10,773 nt of DNA, taken from IMG/VR virus record IMGVR_UViG_2681813269_000008. One strand, 5' to 3'. Positions 1 to 10,773 of this stretch are shown in pieces. The position numbers were made by a program, and so were the translations under genes. The notes under the pieces were generated by a model. The model did not search any database and was not told the DNA's origin. It saw only the letters and a list, made by a program, of their open reading frames with translations. Each line of letters begins with the position of its first letter. Within the stretch, counting starts at the first letter, position 1. Source of the stretch: a virus. Its lineage: Duplodnaviria; Heunggongvirae; Uroviricota; Caudoviricetes.

Positions 1-253
1 GTCTGGCGACAGTGGCAAGGTCTTTATTCAGGAGGGCTTTGCATTCTGCTTCGGTATACGTTTTACCGAGCATGATGTCTTTTCCGGTGTGTCCGTGACA
101 TACAGTCCATACACCAATGATATCTTTGTATGGTATGTAGCTGACACCTTCCAGACCATCGTTACCACCTGGGCCAGTGATTAACACAGATGCTATAGCA
201 ACAGCCCCACCACCAATAGCAGCTGCAACAGCCTTGCGTAATGATGGCGACAT
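1..253 (-). CDS. SAR endolysin (phage 21 R-like lysozyme), N-terminal part only; gene continues beyond the window start
   Basis: Minus-strand translation from the ATG at 253-251 is open to position 1: [84 protein letters not shown]. The Gly/Ala-rich weakly hydrophobic N-terminus is a typical signal-anchor-release domain, followed by a lysozyme-like segment. The start overlaps the holin stop (TAATG). Not in the supplied track because it is truncated. Confidence 0.8.
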
Positions 254-468
254 TATTCACCTCTCGCAGCCTTACGCTTGTCTTCTCTTATTTTGAAATA
301 CAGATTTGTCAGATAAGTCAGAAGCCCCAGAAGCAGACTTCCCAGCACACCAATCGCAGCCCACTGTGATGGACTGACCTGATCCAACCACTGCAAAAAC
401 CAGTAGCCGGCACTGCCGGCGGAGGTGCCGTAGGCAATGCCTGTTGATATTTTTTCCATCTGATACAT
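253..468 (-). CDS. Class II pinholin (phage 21 S21-like) with dual-start motif
   Basis: 71-aa [74 protein letters not shown]. It has two predicted transmembrane segments and a charged C-terminus, and closely resembles S21 as I recall it. Met1 and Met4 give the antiholin/holin dual start. It sits directly upstream of the SAR endolysin. Confidence 0.85.
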
Positions 469-502
469 ATCCCGCCCCCCGACAGACCTGTGCTATCGGA
501 AA

Positions 503-534
503 GAAAAAAGGCCATCAGCAAAACTCTGATGGCC
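503..534 (-). terminator. Predicted rho-independent terminator (minus strand) just upstream of the holin gene
   Basis: Perfect 9-bp stem GGCCATCAG (510-518) / CTGATGGCC (526-534) with a 7-nt loop. On the minus strand the hairpin is followed by a U-run (complement of GAAAAAA at 503-509). Confidence 0.5.
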
Positions 535-579
535 TGAATCACCTTTACCAATATTGTATGAAAAAACACGCACGACTAA

Positions 580-608
580 TTGACAATAATTTTCATTTCC
601 ATTAAAAA
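580..608 (+). promoter_or_regulatory. Candidate sigma70 promoter on the plus strand (TTGACA, 17-nt spacer, TAAAAA)
   Basis: Consensus -35 TTGACA at 580-585, a 17-nt spacer, and a weak -10 TAAAAA at 603-608 in an AT-rich context. It points toward the terminator hairpin at 644-710. Prediction only. Confidence 0.25.
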
Positions 609-643
609 AGATCGCGTAGCATTCTTAATTCATGAGGAACTTT

Positions 644-710
644 ACCCGCCAGCAATCTGAGTAGCGAAAGCTGTTCATCCCCAATGTTTTTGCTGGCGGG
701 TCCTTTTTTC
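644..710 (+). terminator. Long-stem hairpin plus T-run; intrinsic terminator and/or 3' end of a candidate small RNA (plus strand)
   Basis: Perfect 11-bp arms CCCGCCAGCAA (645-655) / TTGCTGGCGGG (690-700) enclose a 34-nt loop with a possible internal GAAA tetraloop stem, followed by TTTTTT (704-709). A second weaker hairpin and T-run lies at about 722-757. Confidence 0.45.
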
Positions 711-1148
711 TACGGTCCTCCTCCCCGGAGGGGGGCATTTCATTATTTTTCTAATCGTTACTGGTGAGAAGGCGGAAGAAAAAGCCAGTTCTTCGCCCCT
801 AAATAACAGCATGATTCCAGTCCATGCAAAATCTGATTTCCAGCTCACACATACCGAGCGCTGTACAAAAAACCGCCAGCCAAGGCAGTTAAGAGTGTGT
901 TCCCGGGGTTTGCTTAGAATATTTTGTAAGTTGTCCGAAGAGATATTTACAACACCAGAATGATGAATCATCAGTCCCCTGCCAGAGGTTCACTACGTAA
1001 CCTGACCGACAATGCACCATTCTGGTGCTGAAAAAAGAGCACTGGAACTGCAACAAAACAACATCACAGAACAGGAGATGGTAAGGAGTCAGACATTCCC
1101 ACACAATATTGTGTCAGTGCAAATAACAACCTTCGTCTCAAATCTCGC

Positions 1149-1223
<75 letters not shown>

Positions 1224-1226
1224 ATA

Positions 1227-1302
<76 letters not shown>

Positions 1303-1304
1303 GC

Positions 1305-1381
1305 TGGCCCACCACCGAGGACTCGAACCTCGCACCGTCAACTTAGAAGGTTGATGCTCTATCCGGATGAGCTAGTGGTGG
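1305..1381 (-). tRNA. tRNA-Arg (anticodon TCT)
   Basis: Minus-strand CCACCACTAGCTCATCCGGATAGAGCATCAACCTTCTAAGTTGACGGTGCGAGGTTCGAGTCCTCGGTGGTGGGCCA. Acceptor stem CCACCAC/GTGGTGG, anticodon stem TCAAC/GTTGA, loop CTTCTAA, encoded CCA. Confidence 0.88.
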
Positions 1382-1382
1382 T

Positions 1383-1459
1383 TGGTGGCCCTTGCTGGAC
1401 TTGAACCAGCGACCTGGCGATTATGAGTCGCTCGCTCTGACCAACTGAGCTAAAGGGCC
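1383..1459 (-). tRNA. tRNA with CAT anticodon, most likely tRNA-Ile2 (lysidine-modified), ileX/ileZ-like
   Basis: Minus-strand GGCCCTTTAGCTCAGTTGGTCAGAGCGAGCGACTCATAATCGCCAGGTCGCTGGTTCAAGTCCAGCAAGGGCCACCA. Anticodon loop CTCATAA. The body resembles E. coli tRNA-Ile2 rather than initiator or elongator tRNA-Met, as I recall them. Confidence 0.85.
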
Positions 1460-1547
1460 GGAGGCAGAATAATAACCATATGTCATCACATCTGCAAACT
1501 CATCTGACCACCAGCACGTTTAACGTCCTGTGCCGTTTTTCAGGTAT

Positions 1548-1573
1548 AAAAAAACCCGCTCATCGGCGGGTTT
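1548..1573 (-). terminator. Predicted rho-independent terminator (minus strand) downstream of the ORF6N-like gene
   Basis: Stem CCCGC (1555-1559) / GCGGG (1566-1570) with a 6-nt loop. On the minus strand it is followed by a 7-U run (complement of the A-run at 1548-1554). Confidence 0.6.
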
Positions 1574-1648
1574 AAGCTGTGTGGCGTAGTAACCACTCTT
1601 AACAGGATATTCAACTTTTTACGATCGTAAAGTTTTCGGAAAAAATTT

Positions 1649-2218
1649 TTAAAACCGCATCAACCGCTCCACCAGTTGCTCTTTACGGGCAACGATCCAC
1701 CCGTGTTGCTCCAGATAAAATTTAAACCGTTCCAGAGTACATACCATCGCATCGGCGGGTACCTTTTCCGTGAACTCAACCTGACCGTGTTTATCGAAGT
1801 GGCTCAGTAATGCGCATCCATCATTTTCGATAGATGTGTTTTGTGCCGCTGGTGGCTGTTTCTGGTTGAAATAACAGTCTTCCAGTTTTTCGAACACTTC
1901 CCACGCCTGATCGGTTTCGAGCATTTTGGCGTGACGGGCTGCGCCACGTTCTGTCCAGAGGATGAGGGAGCGAACGTTACGGGCAATTTTCACAGAAACT
2001 CTTAAAGAGTTTTCGTTCTTCAACTCTCGTAACGCATCACCTTCTATCAGGAAAAAATGTTTACCTTCTATAAACCGTTCTTTGTTTCGATTGAAATTGT
2101 TTGTCAAACGCTGGCGCTCTGTTCCGTACAAATCAGCCAGCAGCTCTGTTGTCATGACAGGAAGATGGTTATGCGTAAGTGACGGGAGTTTTTCAATAGA
2201 CGTGCGATTCATAGACAT
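1649..2218 (-). CDS. ORF6N/KilA-N-like phage DNA-binding (antirepressor-like) protein; start uncertain
   Basis: The open frame runs 1649-2410 (253 aa). The conserved region starts near MSMNRTSIEKLPSLTHNHLPVMTTELLADLYGTERQRLTNNFNRNKERFIEGKHFFLIEGDALRELK...WTERGAARHAKMLETDQAWEVFEKL, which resembles the ORF6N domain by recall. An AAAGGA Shine-Dalgarno sits before the ATG pair at 2218/2212. The 64-codon upstream extension has no protein-like character. Confidence 0.6.
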   Translation of the reverse strand: MSMNRTSIEKLPSLTHNHLPVMTTELLADLYGTERQRLTNNFNRNKERFIEGKHFFLIEGDALRELKNENSLRVSVKIARNVRSLILWTERGAARHAKMLETDQAWEVFEKLEDCYFNQKQPPAAQNTSIENDGCALLSHFDKHGQVEFTEKVPADAMVCTLERFKFYLEQHGWIVARKEQLVERLMRF

Positions 2219-2573
2219 GTCCTTTCGAATATTTTGATTTACCCCTTTTGAGAGGGTGACCGGGCGCTCAAAACCGTCGAAAGTCGGCGGGCGTATTTCC
2301 ATTGCTGGTATTGTATTAGCCGCACACCCGGTCATAAACCAAGAATTCTGGACACAAAAAAACCACATGGCTATCGGGTGTGGATACCGCTTTCGAGGTG
2401 TTTTGAGCACCGCGGGGAAATGTAAACTGCAAACCTGAAACTGTCAACACCGTCAGGTTCCAATCATCGGGTGGTGAGACGCACAGGGTTGGAACTACCG
2501 GGAAACCGACCGGCGAGCTTTTCAGCTCCCCCATGCGCCCCACCATAATTCAGATGTGCGCGTGCATACGACA

Positions 2574-2597
2574 ATAAAAAACACGCTCGCGGCGTGT
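2574..2597 (-). terminator. tR'-like intrinsic terminator downstream of the late promoter (minus strand)
   Basis: Minus-strand ACACGC-CGCGA-GCGTGT hairpin (6-bp stem) followed by TTTTTTAT. It lies about 55-80 nt downstream of the predicted PR' start, as in lambdoid late leaders. Confidence 0.55.
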
Positions 2598-2658
2598 GTC
2601 TGTCGCGGTCTCTATCCGGGGTTCCAATCCCGACGCCAGATTTTGCTGGCGCGTGAGG

Positions 2659-2688
2659 AATATAGCCCCGGACAATGTGTCTGGTCAA
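2659..2688 (-). promoter_or_regulatory. PR'-like late promoter immediately downstream of Q
   Basis: Minus-strand TTGACC (-35, plus 2683-2688), 18-nt spacer, TATATT (-10, plus 2659-2664). It begins 5 bp after the Q stop codon, the canonical lambdoid position for PR'. Confidence 0.55.
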
Positions 2689-2692
2689 GCAC

Positions 2693-3079
2693 CTACATAA
2701 TTCGTTCTACGTATCTGTCCATCTCCAGCCGGATATCAAGCATCATCAACATGCCATCAATAACCCCTTCCGCTTTCTGCAGGCGCTTGCCAATACAGGT
2801 ATCCGAACACCCATGTTTCCGTGCCAGACTCATAAAAGTCATTCCACCTACGTAATAATCCACCAGCAAATCGTGCAAATCCTGATTTTTCTTGTTCAAC
2901 CGGGCCATACAGCCACAAATTATCATTGCATCATCATCAGAACACTGAGGGCGTGATTTCACTTTCGACGGAATTAACCCTTTAAAACCAGCAGCGATCG
3001 ACGCCCAGGATACATCTTCATGAGTGTTTGCAGCCCAAGCCCCCCACCGTTCCATAACCTGCTGAATATCACGCGCCAT
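2693..3079 (-). CDS. Late antiterminator Q (phage antitermination Q family, QuuD/phage 82-like)
   Basis: [121 protein letters not shown] closely resembles QuuD-type Q proteins as I recall them. The track ORF extends to 3100, but the ATG at 3079 has a good AGGTGA Shine-Dalgarno and overlaps the rusA stop. Confidence 0.85.
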
Positions 3080-3440
3080 CGTTATCACCTGTGATTTCAT
3101 AAATCTTCACGCCCAGTCGCCCACCAGGAACGAGCTGACCGCGCACAATATTGATTTCATCAAACTGCTCGTCGTCTATGAGTAGTCCGGCATGCGTCAG
3201 CGCATCCAGTGGTGCTTTCAGGATATTGTCCAGGTCACGACGGCGCTTATCCGGTGGCTCTGCAATAATCTTTATCGCCAGCCTTCCGGACAGGTTTAAT
3301 TTCAGCCGCTGCTGGCGAACAATTAGCGTCACATCACGGCGATAACGCTCACCAACTTTTGATACAAAATATGTGCTGCCACGACGTCGCCAGTAAGTAT
3401 TCACCGTCGGCGGATAAGGTAAAATAAACTCATGGCGCAT
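3069..3440 (-). CDS. rusA: Holliday junction resolvase RusA
   Basis: 123 aa: [21 protein letters not shown]...[31 protein letters not shown]...[11 protein letters not shown]. This matches the RusA hallmark motifs (PPS/TxN, DxRRRDLDN, D/E acidic cluster). The start overlaps the upstream stop (TGATG). Confidence 0.9.
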
Positions 3441-3697
3441 CAGCGCAGCACCTCCTGCACCATTTTTTCAAACTTTCCAACTTTGGTTTCCAGCTCTGCC
3501 ACACAATCAACGAGCTCATCCACCGCTTTTTGTGCGCGATGTTTCGCCTGCATCAGTTCCCTGAGCGCTGGCACCATATCCCGACGAATGGCATCTTTTG
3601 TTACACCTGTTTTTTCCAGTTGTTCCGCCTGTCGCAACATTTCCTGCGCGTGTTTACGCAATTGTTCAGAGGTAAAAGTCATTGTCTGGTTGTTCAA
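3440..3697 (-). CDS. Small hypothetical phage protein, predicted coiled-coil, unknown function
   Basis: 85-codon frame between the helicase and rusA. The 5'-most start is TTG, overlapping the helicase stop; an internal ATG lies at 3682. Charged, heptad-like sequence (EQLRKHAQEMLRQAEQLEK...). No family recognised. Confidence 0.5.
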   Translation of the reverse strand: MNNQTMTFTSEQLRKHAQEMLRQAEQLEKTGVTKDAIRRDMVPALRELMQAKHRAQKAVDELVDCVAELETKVGKFEKMVQEVLR

Positions 3698-5085
3698 AAG
3701 AAACGCTCCATCTTACTGCTGTCGGTACGTGTATTGCTGTATCTGCGCGGCTGGGGCTGCCGCATTGGGGTGGAAAGAACCTGTGCGCTTTCCTGGTCCA
3801 CAGGCAGAAAATGTCCGTTATAAAAACGCCGGTAAATCGTCCCCAGAGAACCGTTACGTTGTTTCGTGATATTAATTTCTGCTATGCCTGTAGCCTGTGT
3901 ATCCGGGTTGTACACTTCATCCCTGTAAAGCATCAGAATGATGTCTGCATCCGCCTCTATTTCTCCGGAATTTTTCAGGTCTGAGTTCATGGGACGTTTA
4001 TTGGGTCTGGACTCCACACCGCGGGAGAGCTGGCTCAGCGCAATCAACGGAAAACCACCGGATTTTGCCAGGCCTTTAAGCCCCTTTGAGATTTCACCCA
4101 CGGCAAGGTCATGACGCCCCGTGGTTCGGGTTTTTATCAGCCCGAGATAATCAACCACCACCAGCGCCGTTTCCGGATGTTTAATCAGATGGTGTTTCGT
4201 TGTTGCGCATATCTCATCAATGGTCAGGTTCGCCTGGTCCACCATCCAGATATTGCGCCCGGTCATCCGCCCCACCCCTTGTGAGAAACGCGCCCAGTCT
4301 TCATCTTCAAAGTGAGCCACAGATTTCAGGCGTGATACTGGCATCCCTCCAGCCGCAGACACCATACGTTCACCAATCTGGATGTTCGCCATCTCCATGG
4401 TGAACAGAAGCACACCATGCCCCTGCTCAGTCACCTTGTCGATGATGTCCAGCGCAAGTTCGGTTTTCCCCATCGAAGGACGGGCGGCAATGAATACCAG
4501 GTCTCCGGGCTCCATACCGCCTGTTTTTGCGTCCAGTTCATCAATACCGGTCATCAACGTCCTGGATTTCTCCAGCCCCTGATTCCGGCATTCAACACGC
4601 TCAACCACTTCCGGAAGCACATCATCAATATGTACCGGCTGAATGACGCCCTTTCCTGTCGACAGTGTGACCATCATGTTCTGCGCATCCTTCAGGGCAT
4701 CTTCAGCTGCTTCACAGGTATGCGCATCACGTAATTTCTGCAGCGCCTCATTCAGTGTTTTTTCTGCATCGCGCAGTGCGGCATTGCGCCGCAACGCTGC
4801 AACATAGTGCTCCAGTGAAGACTTCACCCAGGTTTTACGCCCGGTATCAGTAATCACCGGGGCAAGTTCCGGCATCTCATTACACAACAGCACGGGGTCA
4901 ATCACTCCTGAAACACGGGCCTGTCTGCAGATGCCTGTGTAGATATCCCGATACGCTCGTACAGAAAAAATGTCCGCCGGTAGTGTGATCAGAATATCCA
5001 TCACTTCATGATCTGCCCCACGCAGAAAGAATGCGCCAATGACAGCGCCTTCCAGGTCATCATTACGCCAGACTGGTGTTGTCAT
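3694..5085 (-). CDS. Phage replicative DNA helicase, DnaB family
   Basis: DnaB N-terminal-like region ([13 protein letters not shown]...) and RecA-like C-terminal domain with Walker [10 protein letters not shown], Walker B VVVDYLGL and [20 protein letters not shown]. The ATG at 5085 has a GAGGTG Shine-Dalgarno 9 nt upstream. The track ORF reaching 5145 begins at a GTG inside IS-derived sequence and is an artefactual extension. Confidence 0.9.
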
Positions 5086-5140
5086 GCAGCCACACCTCTG
5101 ATACAAGAACGGTAGCTGGGCCAGTTGAACGACAACCAGT

Positions 5141-5255
5141 ATCACTTAACCCATTACTGGCTTGCTGCCGTAGATATTCCCGTGGCGAGCGATAACCCAG
5201 TGCACTATGCGGATGCCATTCGTTATAATGCTCGAACGCCTCTGCAAGGTTCTTT
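5141..5255 (-). mobile_element. IS2-like internal fragment (3' end of the transposase gene) lacking the terminal inverted repeat
   Basis: The minus strand encodes ...[38 protein letters not shown], matching the C-terminus of the IS2 transposase as I recall it. The same sequence recurs at 10675-10773, where it is preceded by the 32-bp IS2-like terminus that is absent here. Confidence 0.6.
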
Positions 5256-5522
5256 AAAGCCGAAGCTGTCAGAACGGTTCTTGAAAATCAACTTTCGATC
5301 AGTGAAGGCGCTTCCCGATTATCTCTTCCTGAAGGCACTTTAGGACAATGGGTTACCGCCGCCAGAAAAGGGCTCGGTACTCCTGGTTCCCGCACGGTGG
5401 CTGAACTGGAATCTGAAATTCTGCAACTGCGTAAGGCGTTAAATGAAGCTCGCCTTGAGCGAGATATATTAAAAAAAGCAACAGCGTATTTTGCACAGGA
5501 GTCGCTGAAAAATACGCGTTAA
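5256..5522 (+). pseudogene. IS3-family orfA, N-terminally truncated (no start codon)
   Basis: Frame reads ...[89 protein letters not shown], a helix-turn-helix plus leucine-zipper OrfA. An in-frame TAA lies just upstream and there is no ATG. Confidence 0.7.
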
Positions 5523-5557
5523 TCGAACAATGGCGACAACAATTTCCCATTGAAGCG

Positions 5558-6376
5558 ATGTGTCAGGTATTTGGTGTATCCAGGAGCGGTTATTACAACT
5601 GGGTACAGCATGAACCCTCAGACAGAAAACAAAGTGATGAGCGGCTAAAACTGGAGATTAAGGTGGCACATATCCGCACTCGCGAAACATATGGAACCCG
5701 GCGGCTCCAGACGGAGCTGGCAGAGAATGGCATCATCGTTGGTCGTGACCGACTGGCACGTCTTCGTAAGGAGCTAAGGCTACGCTGTAAGCAGAAACGC
5801 AAGTTCAGAGCGACTACGAACTCGAACCACAATCTGCCAGTTGCGCCAAATCTGCTGAACCAGACGTTCGCTCCTACAGCACCAAATCAGGTCTGGGTGG
5901 CGGACCTGACGTATGTTGCCACACAGGAGGGATGGTTGTACCTCGCTGGCATCAAAGATGTTTATACGTGCGAAATTGTCGGCTACGCCATGGGAGAGCG
6001 CATGACAAAAGAGCTGACAGGTAAAGCCCTGTTTATGGCGCTCAGGAGCCAGCGCCCACCTGCCGGGCTAATCCACCACTCTGATCGAGGTTCACAGTAC
6101 TGCGCATACGATTACCGGGTCATACAGGAGCAGTCTGGTCTGAAAACATCAATGTCGCGTAAAGGTAACTGTTACGACAACGCTCCGATGGAAAGCTTCT
6201 GGGGAACGCTGAAAAATGAGAGCCTGAGCCACTATCGTTTTAATAACCGGGATGAAGCCATCTCAGTAATACGGGAATACATTGAGATTTTCTACAATCG
6301 TCAGCGTCGTCACTCTCGTCTGGGGAATATCTCCCCGGCAGCCTTCAGGGAAAAATATCATCAGATGGCTGCTTAA
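5558..6376 (+). CDS. IS3-family transposase OrfB (DDE integrase catalytic domain)
   Basis: 272 aa with the DDE triad context WVADLTY, HHSDRGSQY and CYDNAPMESFWGTLK. The frame is open from the slippery site at 5471, consistent with an OrfAB frameshift fusion. Because orfA is truncated, a functional fusion is unlikely. Confidence 0.85.
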   Translation: MCQVFGVSRSGYYNWVQHEPSDRKQSDERLKLEIKVAHIRTRETYGTRRLQTELAENGIIVGRDRLARLRKELRLRCKQKRKFRATTNSNHNLPVAPNLLNQTFAPTAPNQVWVADLTYVATQEGWLYLAGIKDVYTCEIVGYAMGERMTKELTGKALFMALRSQRPPAGLIHHSDRGSQYCAYDYRVIQEQSGLKTSMSRKGNCYDNAPMESFWGTLKNESLSHYRFNNRDEAISVIREYIEIFYNRQRRHSRLGNISPAAFREKYHQMAA

Positions 6377-6469
6377 AAAAAGAACAAATGGTAGTGTCCG
6401 CTATTGCCAGTACACCTCACACTCTATCCAACAAACCACCCACAGTTAATCGGAATAAAAGCAGAGTGC

Positions 6470-6595
6470 TTATGAATGATCGCACGCCCGAAGGTTAGTA
6501 TTTCTGCACAGCAATTTTGCAAAAAAAGGCGATCATTCATAACTTAAACGTCTTTCAGTCACTCCGGGATTTCCCATCATCGCAGACTGAAAGAC
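6470..6595. repeat. Two adjacent perfect inverted repeats (14-bp arms and 11-bp arms) in the copy-2 flank
   Basis: TTATGAATGATCGC (6470-6483) pairs with GCGATCATTCATAA (6529-6542) across a 45-nt spacer. GTCTTTCAGTC (6550-6560) pairs with GACTGAAAGAC (6585-6595) across a 24-nt spacer. The second ends 6 bp from the tRNA-Gly 3' end. Confidence 0.6.
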
Positions 6596-6601
6596 TCTGA
6601 C

Positions 6602-6676
<75 letters not shown>

Positions 6677-6679
6677 ATA

Positions 6680-6755
<76 letters not shown>

Positions 6756-6757
6756 GC

Positions 6758-6834
6758 TGGCCCACCACCGAGGACTCGAACCTCGCACCGTCAACTTAGA
6801 AGGTTGATGCTCTATCCGGATGAGCTAGTGGTGG
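6758..6834 (-). tRNA. tRNA-Arg (anticodon TCT), copy 2
   Basis: Identical to 1305-1381 (offset 5453). Confidence 0.88.
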
Positions 6835-6835
6835 T

Positions 6836-6912
6836 TGGTGGCCCTTGCTGGACTTGAACCAGCGACCTGGCGATTATGAGTCGCTCGCTCTGACCAACTG
6901 AGCTAAAGGGCC
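6836..6912 (-). tRNA. tRNA-Ile2-like (anticodon CAT), copy 2
   Basis: Identical to 1383-1459 (offset 5453). Confidence 0.85.
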
Positions 6913-7000
6913 GGAGGCAGAATAATAACCATATGTCATCACATCTGCAAACTCATCTGACCACCAGCACGTTTAACGTCCTGTGCCGTTTTTCAGGTAT

Positions 7001-7026
7001 AAAAAAACCCGCTCATCGGCGGGTTT
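7001..7026 (-). terminator. Predicted rho-independent terminator, copy 2
   Basis: Identical to 1548-1573 (offset 5453). Confidence 0.6.
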
Positions 7027-7101
7027 AAGCTGTGTGGCGTAGTAACCACTCTTAACAGGATATTCAACTTTTTACGATCGTAAAGTTTTCGGAAAAAATT
7101 T

Positions 7102-7671
7102 TTAAAACCGCATCAACCGCTCCACCAGTTGCTCTTTACGGGCAACGATCCACCCGTGTTGCTCCAGATAAAATTTAAACCGTTCCAGAGTACATACCAT
7201 CGCATCGGCGGGTACCTTTTCCGTGAACTCAACCTGACCGTGTTTATCGAAGTGGCTCAGTAATGCGCATCCATCATTTTCGATAGATGTGTTTTGTGCC
7301 GCTGGTGGCTGTTTCTGGTTGAAATAACAGTCTTCCAGTTTTTCGAACACTTCCCACGCCTGATCGGTTTCGAGCATTTTGGCGTGACGGGCTGCGCCAC
7401 GTTCTGTCCAGAGGATGAGGGAGCGAACGTTACGGGCAATTTTCACAGAAACTCTTAAAGAGTTTTCGTTCTTCAACTCTCGTAACGCATCACCTTCTAT
7501 CAGGAAAAAATGTTTACCTTCTATAAACCGTTCTTTGTTTCGATTGAAATTGTTTGTCAAACGCTGGCGCTCTGTTCCGTACAAATCAGCCAGCAGCTCT
7601 GTTGTCATGACAGGAAGATGGTTATGCGTAAGTGACGGGAGTTTTTCAATAGACGTGCGATTCATAGACAT
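7102..7671 (-). CDS. ORF6N/KilA-N-like phage DNA-binding (antirepressor-like) protein, copy 2
   Basis: Identical to 1649-2218; the track ORF 7102-7863 is the same extended frame. Confidence 0.6.
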   Translation of the reverse strand: MSMNRTSIEKLPSLTHNHLPVMTTELLADLYGTERQRLTNNFNRNKERFIEGKHFFLIEGDALRELKNENSLRVSVKIARNVRSLILWTERGAARHAKMLETDQAWEVFEKLEDCYFNQKQPPAAQNTSIENDGCALLSHFDKHGQVEFTEKVPADAMVCTLERFKFYLEQHGWIVARKEQLVERLMRF

Positions 7672-8026
7672 GTCCTTTCGAATATTTTGATTTACCCCTT
7701 TTGAGAGGGTGACCGGGCGCTCAAAACCGTCGAAAGTCGGCGGGCGTATTTCCATTGCTGGTATTGTATTAGCCGCACACCCGGTCATAAACCAAGAATT
7801 CTGGACACAAAAAAACCACATGGCTATCGGGTGTGGATACCGCTTTCGAGGTGTTTTGAGCACCGCGGGGAAATGTAAACTGCAAACCTGAAACTGTCAA
7901 CACCGTCAGGTTCCAATCATCGGGTGGTGAGACGCACAGGGTTGGAACTACCGGGAAACCGACCGGCGAGCTTTTCAGCTCCCCCATGCGCCCCACCATA
8001 ATTCAGATGTGCGCGTGCATACGACA

Positions 8027-8050
8027 ATAAAAAACACGCTCGCGGCGTGT
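8027..8050 (-). terminator. tR'-like intrinsic terminator, copy 2
   Basis: Identical to 2574-2597 (offset 5453). Confidence 0.55.
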
Positions 8051-8111
8051 GTCTGTCGCGGTCTCTATCCGGGGTTCCAATCCCGACGCCAGATTTTGCT
8101 GGCGCGTGAGG

Positions 8112-8141
8112 AATATAGCCCCGGACAATGTGTCTGGTCAA
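8112..8141 (-). promoter_or_regulatory. PR'-like late promoter, copy 2
   Basis: Identical to 2659-2688 (offset 5453). Confidence 0.55.
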
Positions 8142-8145
8142 GCAC

Positions 8146-8532
8146 CTACATAATTCGTTCTACGTATCTGTCCATCTCCAGCCGGATATCAAGCATCATC
8201 AACATGCCATCAATAACCCCTTCCGCTTTCTGCAGGCGCTTGCCAATACAGGTATCCGAACACCCATGTTTCCGTGCCAGACTCATAAAAGTCATTCCAC
8301 CTACGTAATAATCCACCAGCAAATCGTGCAAATCCTGATTTTTCTTGTTCAACCGGGCCATACAGCCACAAATTATCATTGCATCATCATCAGAACACTG
8401 AGGGCGTGATTTCACTTTCGACGGAATTAACCCTTTAAAACCAGCAGCGATCGACGCCCAGGATACATCTTCATGAGTGTTTGCAGCCCAAGCCCCCCAC
8501 CGTTCCATAACCTGCTGAATATCACGCGCCAT
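8146..8532 (-). CDS. Late antiterminator Q, copy 2
   Basis: Identical to 2693-3079; track ORF 8146-8553. Confidence 0.85.
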
Positions 8533-8893
8533 CGTTATCACCTGTGATTTCATAAATCTTCACGCCCAGTCGCCCACCAGGAACGAGCTGACCGCGCACA
8601 ATATTGATTTCATCAAACTGCTCGTCGTCTATGAGTAGTCCGGCATGCGTCAGCGCATCCAGTGGTGCTTTCAGGATATTGTCCAGGTCACGACGGCGCT
8701 TATCCGGTGGCTCTGCAATAATCTTTATCGCCAGCCTTCCGGACAGGTTTAATTTCAGCCGCTGCTGGCGAACAATTAGCGTCACATCACGGCGATAACG
8801 CTCACCAACTTTTGATACAAAATATGTGCTGCCACGACGTCGCCAGTAAGTATTCACCGTCGGCGGATAAGGTAAAATAAACTCATGGCGCAT
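8522..8893 (-). CDS. rusA: Holliday junction resolvase RusA, copy 2
   Basis: Identical to 3069-3440. Confidence 0.9.
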
Positions 8894-9150
8894 CAGCGCA
8901 GCACCTCCTGCACCATTTTTTCAAACTTTCCAACTTTGGTTTCCAGCTCTGCCACACAATCAACGAGCTCATCCACCGCTTTTTGTGCGCGATGTTTCGC
9001 CTGCATCAGTTCCCTGAGCGCTGGCACCATATCCCGACGAATGGCATCTTTTGTTACACCTGTTTTTTCCAGTTGTTCCGCCTGTCGCAACATTTCCTGC
9101 GCGTGTTTACGCAATTGTTCAGAGGTAAAAGTCATTGTCTGGTTGTTCAA
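8893..9150 (-). CDS. Small hypothetical coiled-coil phage protein, copy 2
   Basis: Identical to 3440-3697. Confidence 0.5.
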   Translation of the reverse strand: MNNQTMTFTSEQLRKHAQEMLRQAEQLEKTGVTKDAIRRDMVPALRELMQAKHRAQKAVDELVDCVAELETKVGKFEKMVQEVLR

Positions 9151-10538
9151 AAGAAACGCTCCATCTTACTGCTGTCGGTACGTGTATTGCTGTATCTGCG
9201 CGGCTGGGGCTGCCGCATTGGGGTGGAAAGAACCTGTGCGCTTTCCTGGTCCACAGGCAGAAAATGTCCGTTATAAAAACGCCGGTAAATCGTCCCCAGA
9301 GAACCGTTACGTTGTTTCGTGATATTAATTTCTGCTATGCCTGTAGCCTGTGTATCCGGGTTGTACACTTCATCCCTGTAAAGCATCAGAATGATGTCTG
9401 CATCCGCCTCTATTTCTCCGGAATTTTTCAGGTCTGAGTTCATGGGACGTTTATTGGGTCTGGACTCCACACCGCGGGAGAGCTGGCTCAGCGCAATCAA
9501 CGGAAAACCACCGGATTTTGCCAGGCCTTTAAGCCCCTTTGAGATTTCACCCACGGCAAGGTCATGACGCCCCGTGGTTCGGGTTTTTATCAGCCCGAGA
9601 TAATCAACCACCACCAGCGCCGTTTCCGGATGTTTAATCAGATGGTGTTTCGTTGTTGCGCATATCTCATCAATGGTCAGGTTCGCCTGGTCCACCATCC
9701 AGATATTGCGCCCGGTCATCCGCCCCACCCCTTGTGAGAAACGCGCCCAGTCTTCATCTTCAAAGTGAGCCACAGATTTCAGGCGTGATACTGGCATCCC
9801 TCCAGCCGCAGACACCATACGTTCACCAATCTGGATGTTCGCCATCTCCATGGTGAACAGAAGCACACCATGCCCCTGCTCAGTCACCTTGTCGATGATG
9901 TCCAGCGCAAGTTCGGTTTTCCCCATCGAAGGACGGGCGGCAATGAATACCAGGTCTCCGGGCTCCATACCGCCTGTTTTTGCGTCCAGTTCATCAATAC
10001 CGGTCATCAACGTCCTGGATTTCTCCAGCCCCTGATTCCGGCATTCAACACGCTCAACCACTTCCGGAAGCACATCATCAATATGTACCGGCTGAATGAC
10101 GCCCTTTCCTGTCGACAGTGTGACCATCATGTTCTGCGCATCCTTCAGGGCATCTTCAGCTGCTTCACAGGTATGCGCATCACGTAATTTCTGCAGCGCC
10201 TCATTCAGTGTTTTTTCTGCATCGCGCAGTGCGGCATTGCGCCGCAACGCTGCAACATAGTGCTCCAGTGAAGACTTCACCCAGGTTTTACGCCCGGTAT
10301 CAGTAATCACCGGGGCAAGTTCCGGCATCTCATTACACAACAGCACGGGGTCAATCACTCCTGAAACACGGGCCTGTCTGCAGATGCCTGTGTAGATATC
10401 CCGATACGCTCGTACAGAAAAAATGTCCGCCGGTAGTGTGATCAGAATATCCATCACTTCATGATCTGCCCCACGCAGAAAGAATGCGCCAATGACAGCG
10501 CCTTCCAGGTCATCATTACGCCAGACTGGTGTTGTCAT
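9147..10538 (-). CDS. Phage replicative DNA helicase, DnaB family, copy 2
   Basis: Identical to 3694-5085. The 510-aa track ORF (to 10679) is an artefactual in-frame extension across 49 bp of flank and the IS2-like terminus. Confidence 0.9.
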   Translation of the reverse strand: MTTPVWRNDDLEGAVIGAFFLRGADHEVMDILITLPADIFSVRAYRDIYTGICRQARVSGVIDPVLLCNEMPELAPVITDTGRKTWVKSSLEHYVAALRRNAALRDAEKTLNEALQKLRDAHTCEAAEDALKDAQNMMVTLSTGKGVIQPVHIDDVLPEVVERVECRNQGLEKSRTLMTGIDELDAKTGGMEPGDLVFIAARPSMGKTELALDIIDKVTEQGHGVLLFTMEMANIQIGERMVSAAGGMPVSRLKSVAHFEDEDWARFSQGVGRMTGRNIWMVDQANLTIDEICATTKHHLIKHPETALVVVDYLGLIKTRTTGRHDLAVGEISKGLKGLAKSGGFPLIALSQLSRGVESRPNKRPMNSDLKNSGEIEADADIILMLYRDEVYNPDTQATGIAEINITKQRNGSLGTIYRRFYNGHFLPVDQESAQVLSTPMRQPQPRRYSNTRTDSSKMERFF

Positions 10539-10642
10539 GCAGCCACACCTCTGATACAAGAACGGTAGCTGGGCCAGTTGAACGACAACCAGTTGCGCCC
10601 CCCGTCTGTGATCCTGTCGGCAATGCGGGGGCTGATGAACGC
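10535..10642 (-). pseudogene. 3' remnant of the gene upstream of the helicase (probable replication initiator or helicase loader), cut by the IS2-like insertion
   Basis: Minus-strand frame ...[35 protein letters not shown] ends in a TGA that overlaps the helicase ATG (ATGA coupling). The frame is open right up to the IS2-like terminus at 10643. No family assignment is possible from 35 codons. Confidence 0.35.
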
Positions 10643-10773
10643 TGGATTTGCCCCTATATTTCCAGACACCTGTTATCACTTAACCCATTACTGGCTTGCT
10701 GCCGTAGATATTCCCGTGGCGAGCGATAACCCAGTGCACTATGCGGATGCCATTCGTTATAATGCTCGAACGC
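10643..10773 (-). mobile_element. IS2-like element, right terminus and 3' end of the transposase gene; runs off the window end
   Basis: TGGATTTGCCCCTATATTTCCAGACACCTGTTATCACTTAACCCATTAC... matches the reverse complement of the IS2 right inverted repeat as I recall it, with about one mismatch. The minus strand encodes the transposase C-terminus ...[10 protein letters not shown]. Confidence 0.6.

Follow-up and report, generated by a model that had tools for sequence, protein, structure and literature searches.

At positions 5255/5256 of the window analyzed here, a 10,773-nt stretch of DNA from a Caudoviricetes record in IMG/VR (IMGVR_UViG_2681813269_000008), a 5'-truncated IS3-family element directly abuts a fragment of IS2. 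The question raised by this arrangement is how two incomplete insertion sequences came to be joined to one another. The first-pass annotation of the window had described the pair correctly: the truncated element proved to be nt 101-1264 of IS600, with 2 mismatches in 1164 nt, and its neighbor is identical at 115 of 115 positions to the IS2 beside dnaB in S. sonnei 53G. It had further proposed that one element had inserted into or deleted the other, and that the locus is a hotspot for insertion.

To identify the truncated element, positions 5100-6500 were compared with complete E. coli genomes by megablast, which returned thousands of matches. Those of at least 80% were found in more than 1,600 E. 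coli genomes and are annotated as [quoted passage not shown]; the name IS600 used here rests on these RefSeq-annotated copies. Two full-length copies in unrelated contexts (L001 and L002), with 3-bp target duplications, served as the reference for the element ends, and the points at which they diverge on either side define IS600 as a 1264-bp element reading TGAGGTAGCC...CACCTCA. Comparison with the annotated copies showed that the interval 5256-6419 (plus strand) is a copy of IS600 (IS3 family) minus its first 100 nt, with a nucleotide identity of 99.8% over nt 101-1264, above the >95% used to assign two copies to the same IS. The left limit of the first-pass annotation was therefore exact, whereas its right limit, 6414, falls 5 bases short of the end of IS600 at 6419, since an IS-free relative (L003, EIEC CFSAN029787) resumes 100% identity to the window at exactly 6420. 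Only the right one of the two terminal inverted repeats (5'-TG...CA-3') was detected, at 6394-6419 on the plus strand and ending ...CACCTCA, its ends being set by the same two contexts and by the IS-free relative. The missing 100 nt comprise the left inverted repeat (nt 1-26), the leader/promoter region, the ribosome-binding site (RBS), the ATG, and codons 1-12 of orfA, in agreement with the earlier statement that the left repeat and the orfA start are lacking. Because the left repeat is gone, the remnant is a fragment of IS600 rather than a complete element, and with one inverted repeat, and with orfA/orfAB deprived of promoter, RBS, and start codon, it cannot transpose by itself. It shares with IS600 of Shigella and EIEC (1264 bp) the orfA/orfB layout, the A7 run, the DDE orfB, the right repeat, and the habit of making 3-bp duplications, but differs in the loss of nt 1-100, which leaves a non-autonomous fragment. 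The remnant is a dead and biologically inert copy of a well-known Shigella insertion sequence. One of its differences from L001 and L002 is a T-to-C change at window position 6135 (IS600 nt 980), which gives F306S in OrfAB; at least one E. coli IS600 copy (L016) also carries C at nt 980, so the change is a polymorphism rather than damage.

What the remnant retains is a coding cassette of the type described in the first-pass annotation, with the leucine-zipper end of orfA, the A7 run, an overlap open from 5459, and a full DDE orfB. The orfA portion (5256-5522, plus strand) covers codons 13-100 and the stop codon, matches HTH_Tnp_1 with E=1.7e-14 over profile positions 12-75 of 75, and keeps the helix-turn-helix and leucine-zipper regions with a C-terminus of heptad leucines. 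Downstream, orfB (5558-6376, plus strand; 272 aa) has its own ATG in the frame open from 5459 and a DDE domain in Pfam, where it matches the rve integrase core with E=8.7e-26 as well as HTH_21, rve_2, and rve_3. We read the motifs VADLTY, HSDRGSQY, and APMESF by eye in its translation as the putative DDE residues. The two frames lie in the 0 and -1 phases and are connected by an A-rich slippery site, TTA AAA AAA G, with the A7 run at 5471-5477 (plus strand); this is the layout of the IS3 family and predicts -1 programmed frameshifting. A conceptual -1 shift on the A7 of a full IS600 copy yields 385 aa, the length of the product annotated in RefSeq. A fold of 5465-5575 was no better than its shuffles (z = -0.99) when a frameshift-stimulating structure was sought downstream of the site, and an Rfam scan gave no match within the IS region.

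Given an intact orfB frame, slippery site, and DDE domain, and only one amino-acid difference (F306S) from the reference copies, it could be argued that the remnant is a functional, expressed gene, its product being a shortened OrfAB or OrfB alone that acts in trans on IS600 or has a regulatory role. We regard this as very unlikely. The orfA portion has neither start codon nor RBS, and the sole in-frame start left to it is an internal GTG at 5397; look-up of the 41-aa product predicted from this GTG returned only unrelated IS600 copies in other assemblies. The first-pass annotation had suggested that orfB might be expressed by read-through transcription, but a promoter scan of 4900-6700 found no sigma-70-like site on the plus strand upstream of orfB, and the genes upstream all run on the opposite strand, such that the preceding 4 kb is antisense to phage genes. 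IS3-family transposases act mainly in cis, and OrfB alone is not known to have any activity. The intactness of orfB would in any case be accounted for by the recency of the remnant alone.

The right flank of the remnant reveals where its ancestor had inserted. In an IMG/VR contig (L040), a full-length IS600 occupies exactly the same site, in the arrangement GGAAAGCAC - IS600 - CACTCTATCC, with CAC on both sides. Of the target duplication that the first-pass annotation suggested looking for near the right end, the window has the right-hand CAC at 6420-6422 as its only copy, the left CAC having been lost with the left end of IS600. The comparison with L040 shows that the ancestor of the remnant arrived by normal transposition, with duplication of CAC, in the phage spacer downstream of tRNA-Gly. 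The stretch from the IS600 site to tRNA-Gly (6420-6600) is a 181-bp spacer that is 100% identical to EIEC prophages and is the natural spacer beside the same tRNA block in other prophages, which we call B-type; it is missing from the single-copy locus of S. sonnei 53G and from the other S. sonnei loci fetched. Another IMG/VR contig (L037, IMGVR_UViG_2671180430_000009) appeared to carry the same IS600 cut at nt 127 against the alternative, A-type spacer. This case was rejected as the product of scaffold gaps, as the contig has single-N joins at 3687 and 4113 and its apparent IS600 and IS911 junctions are separate pieces joined together. In at least two other S. sonnei genomes (L027 and L036), a separate full-length IS600 interrupts the dnaB-type helicase gene at the equivalent of window positions 4853-4856 in the opposite orientation, which indicates independent IS600 activity at the locus.

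On the other side of the junction, positions 5141-5255 (minus strand) are an internal fragment of IS2 (IS3 family; 1331 bp), corresponding to nt 33-147 counted from the IS2 end facing dnaB, or about nt 1185-1299 in standard numbering, and encoding, on the minus strand, the final ~38 codons of IS2 OrfB. The 115 nt are identical to IS2 over their length, but they lack both the terminal 32 nt and all of the element past nt 147, such that an IS2 terminus is found at neither edge. A second stretch of IS2 lies at the far end of the window (10643-10773, minus strand), where the first 131 nt of the element are present with an intact terminus; all phage matches stop at 10642, the window ends within this IS2, and the element is full length in 53G. 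The fragment is identical to it at 99 of 99 positions (10675-10773), as compared with 94.8% identity to another S. sonnei IS2 copy 11 kb away. The bases around the junction make the nature of the join clear. IS2 reads ...GGTTCTTT/GCTG and IS600 reads ...GAGTTC/AAAGCC, while the window reads GGTTCTTT/AAAGCC. The join thus lies exactly at 5255/5256 and connects IS2 nt 147 to IS600 nt 101 bluntly with zero shared bases, bearing out the earlier description of an abrupt left junction. A deletion of the IS-excision (IEE) type was also considered and dropped. Such deletions are known to start at IS termini, and the breakpoint here is 100 nt inside IS600.

That the two fragments touch, in Shigella with its 229-348 IS insertions per reference chromosome and five IS families, IS600 and IS2 included, that have expanded in every species (PMC7373316), made it reasonable to propose that one had inserted into the other, an adjacent deletion then removing the inner ends. 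The flanks contradict this explanation, in either direction, and we consider it barely credible. Since no IS terminus is present on either side of 5255/5256, neither element inserted into the other there. Moreover, IS600 is followed on its right by phage spacer rather than by IS2, and the same site in phage DNA holds a full copy flanked by CAC, while the other side of the IS2 fragment is the upstream region of dnaB, where the intact IS2 also sits. These flanks indicate that IS2 and IS600 each entered a target of its own, about 4 kb from that of the other.

The explanation for their contact was instead suggested by the structure of the window as a whole. Positions 1148-5140 and 6601-10593 (both minus strand) are direct repeats of 3,993 bp that are 100% identical to one another, each containing genes for tRNA-Gly, tRNA-Thr, tRNA-Arg, and tRNA-Met(CAU), an ORF6N protein, a Q antiterminator, RusA, an 85-aa ORF, and a DnaB-type helicase. 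The 1,460 bp between them consists of the IS2 fragment (115 bp), the IS600 remnant (1164 bp), and the 181-bp spacer, and this stretch is the seam between the two repeat copies. The phage repeats are spaced 5,453 bp apart and the IS2 pieces 5,534 bp apart. Within each copy, between Q and the ORF6N gene (2250-2665 and 7703-8118, minus strand), Rfam matches above the gathering score were obtained for C4 antisense RNA, its a1/b1 targets, isrK, and sRNA-Xcc1. These look like a P1/P7-like c4-antirepressor immunity module doubled through the repeat. The IS2 at 10643 severs an upstream gene for a DnaC-like loader (at 10594-10643), of which ~100 nt of the 3' end are left by comparison with L003; because this gene is cut off, the locus is a prophage remnant devoid of its replication-initiation and immunity region.

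Relatives of the window carry the block once. Positions 1-5140 and 6601-10773 both match a single stretch of S. sonnei 53G at 100% identity. The block is present there a single time, and the 53G-type locus equals the left flank of the window, one repeat, and the right flank (49 bp and the intact IS2 terminus at 10643). A base-by-base comparison with the window covered 17 S. sonnei-type loci (from 53G, L005, L006, and L014, from three further assemblies, and from IMG/VR contigs), and every one had this single-copy allele; ~20 loci recovered by protein look-up have the same gene order with one copy per assembly. Copy 2 also exists elsewhere with both of its flanks: two contigs (L038 and L039) carry an uninterrupted IS600 - 181 bp - repeat - 49 bp - IS2 arrangement that contains no Ns and is 100% identical to window positions 6309-10709 and 5891-10773, respectively. 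Searches for the seam elsewhere detected the IS2/IS600 junction (5255/5256) in none of the E. coli complete genomes, GTDB representatives, JGI metagenomes, or IMG/VR records, and the junction between dnaB and IS2 (5140/5141) in no IMG/VR record. Both junctions were absent from all 70 fetched loci, and look-up of a 72-aa chimeric ORF specific to the seam found none on record. Among the sequences searched, the apparent duplication is known from this window alone.

Two further differences between the copies bear on how the structure arose. Beside copy 2, 81 bp (10594-10674) separate the repeat from the part of IS2 shared with the seam; they comprise 49 bp of phage DNA plus IS2 nt 1-32 and are deleted beside copy 1. 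This deletion accounts for the difference between the 5,534-bp and 5,453-bp spacings, and its endpoints lie within an imperfect repeat (GACAACCAGTT / GACACCTGTT). The phage DNA just upstream of the IS2 insertion (5113-5140 and 10566-10593) resembles the left end of IS2, with an exact 10-mer, GACAACCAGT (0.02 expected per window), and the flanking matches TAG.CTGG.CC..TGAA, and the deletion beside copy 1 ends exactly at this IS2-like sequence. The likeness could reflect the choice of an inverted repeat-like target by IS2, or it could be due to chance, a rough post hoc estimate giving p ~0.02. The second difference lies in the left flank, next to the tRNA genes; these form a 412-bp block at 1148-1559, identical to 6601-7012. 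Among the loci compared (L038-L041, L046, L050, and L061), each type of left flank (A or B) was found around the block together with each type of right module (this Q or a different Q'), which makes four arrangements, two of them in one IMG genome (L039 and L050). As judged from these arrangements, the tRNA cluster is demonstrably a point at which modules have been exchanged between prophages.

Taken together, we favor the explanation, with a probability of roughly 60%, that a tandem duplication of the prophage block arose through illegitimate recombination of IS2 with IS600 and that the 81-bp deletion occurred later. The parent segment would have been IS600 - 181 bp - tRNAs...dnaB - 49 bp - IS2. 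In a single homology-free joining event, IS2 nt 147 on one sister copy would have been connected to IS600 nt 101 on the other, producing a head-to-tail duplication with a 5,534-bp unit; the truncation point of IS600 would then simply be one side of the joint, and the partial IS2 and partial IS600 of the seam would be the duplicated edges of full elements flanking the unit. A later deletion of 81 bp between the short imperfect repeats would have brought the spacing to the present 5,453 bp, and an exchange within the 412-bp tRNA block would have placed an A-type flank with a holin gene to the left of copy 1. A template-switch route starting from a 53G-type locus would give the same product. Conversely, recombination between the 3,993-bp repeats would yield exactly the single-copy locus of 53G, and the change may have run from single copy to duplication or in the reverse direction.

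Several observations are consistent with a duplication. Identical copies lie head to tail where relatives have a single-copy allele, as in a tandem duplication, and the seam IS2 has the same allele, orientation, and position relative to dnaB as the IS2 flanking copy 2. One novel joint is enough if the parent had the IS600 - 181 bp - repeat - 49 bp - IS2 structure, which exists in L038 and L039, although the left flank of copy 1 differs from it: a simple tandem duplication predicts that copy 1, too, is preceded by IS600 and the 181-bp spacer, and an A-type spacer and holin are found there instead, so one additional exchange must be assumed. Tandem duplications formed by RecA-independent (illegitimate or template-switch) events similarly have head-to-tail copies and one joint with zero or few shared bases, may carry a further small deletion where a short repeat lies beside the joint, and are reversible by recombination between the repeats; unlike them, the window needs the additional tRNA-block exchange for the left flank of copy 1. 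With one illegitimate-recombination breakpoint between perfect 3,993-bp repeats as the better explanation of the IS scraps, the earlier suggestion of an insertion hotspot becomes needless.

The unexpected flank of copy 1 would be explained directly if the window were a deletion scar. In that case, tandem lambdoid prophages would have lost the DNA from IS2 nt 148 to IS600 nt 100, and their early regions would later have been homogenized by gene conversion. The two copies do have different natural left flanks (A-type at 1-1147 and B-type at 6420-6600), each of which directly adjoins the tRNA block in genomes other than this one, and prophage modules are exchanged at this block. We nevertheless think this history unlikely, because related prophages differ by 4-25% over the region while the copies are 100% identical over 3,993 bp and have the identical IS2 allele beside both in the same position and orientation. 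A conversion tract of >4.1 kb that included the IS2 insertion would be needed, and none of the genomes seen carries the intervening DNA. An assembly artefact must also be weighed, in which the source contains the block only once and mis-assembly across IS and tRNA repeats produced the second copy, the seam, or both. The seam junctions are unique to the window among the collections searched, the compared S. sonnei loci are single copy, as are those found by look-up in each assembly, and the 412-bp tRNA repeat common to two loci could mislead assemblers. On the other hand, a blunt join of IS2 to IS600 and the loss of 81 bp at an imperfect repeat are not things that assemblers invent, as the bases must come from reads, and copy 2 with both its flanks was independently confirmed by L038 and L039. 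An artefact is, in our view, improbable.

For the biology of insertion sequences as such, the locus has little consequence, as IS600 and IS2 are textbook elements that are commonly found truncated in Shigella. For annotation purposes, 5256-6419 is best called a 5'-truncated IS600 pseudogene. The main interest of the IS600/IS2 fusion is that it forms the seam joining a 4-kb prophage segment to an identical copy of itself. Its stacked IS scars mark a structural variant in which, compared with S. sonnei 53G, a prophage block has undergone a 5.45-kb duplication; any interpretation of this variant, or its use for typing, should wait until it has been checked against reads.

An example of the amplification of an IS600-associated prophage segment is already known from stx. 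Homologous recombination between full IS600 copies is reportedly the route that McDonough and Butterton proposed for this amplification in 1999. In PMC7819885, S. dysenteriae Sd1617 is described as carrying a truncated IS600 orfA adjoining a defective prophage, and stx as undergoing tandem amplification of an IS600-associated prophage segment (citing McDonough & Butterton 1999). The window resembles the stx case in being a defective lambdoid Shigella prophage segment with IS600 that is present in one or more tandem copies and can collapse by recombination; it differs in that its seam is a homology-free IS2/IS600 fusion and in that its unit carries tRNAs, Q, and dnaB but no stx. It is conceivable, though we would give it only slender odds, that the 5.45-kb block is a real, recurrent, and reversible amplification unit of S. 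sonnei and that the GACAACCAGT sequence, with its likeness to the IS2 left end, guided the insertion of IS2 as well as the 81-bp deletion. If the block is such a unit, the dose of four tRNAs, the c4/isrK-type antisense RNA module, the ORF6N antirepressor-like gene, Q, RusA, and the DnaB helicase would be doubled, in a manner similar to the IS600-associated stx amplification of S. dysenteriae 1, except that it would proceed via a homology-free fusion of IS2 and IS600.
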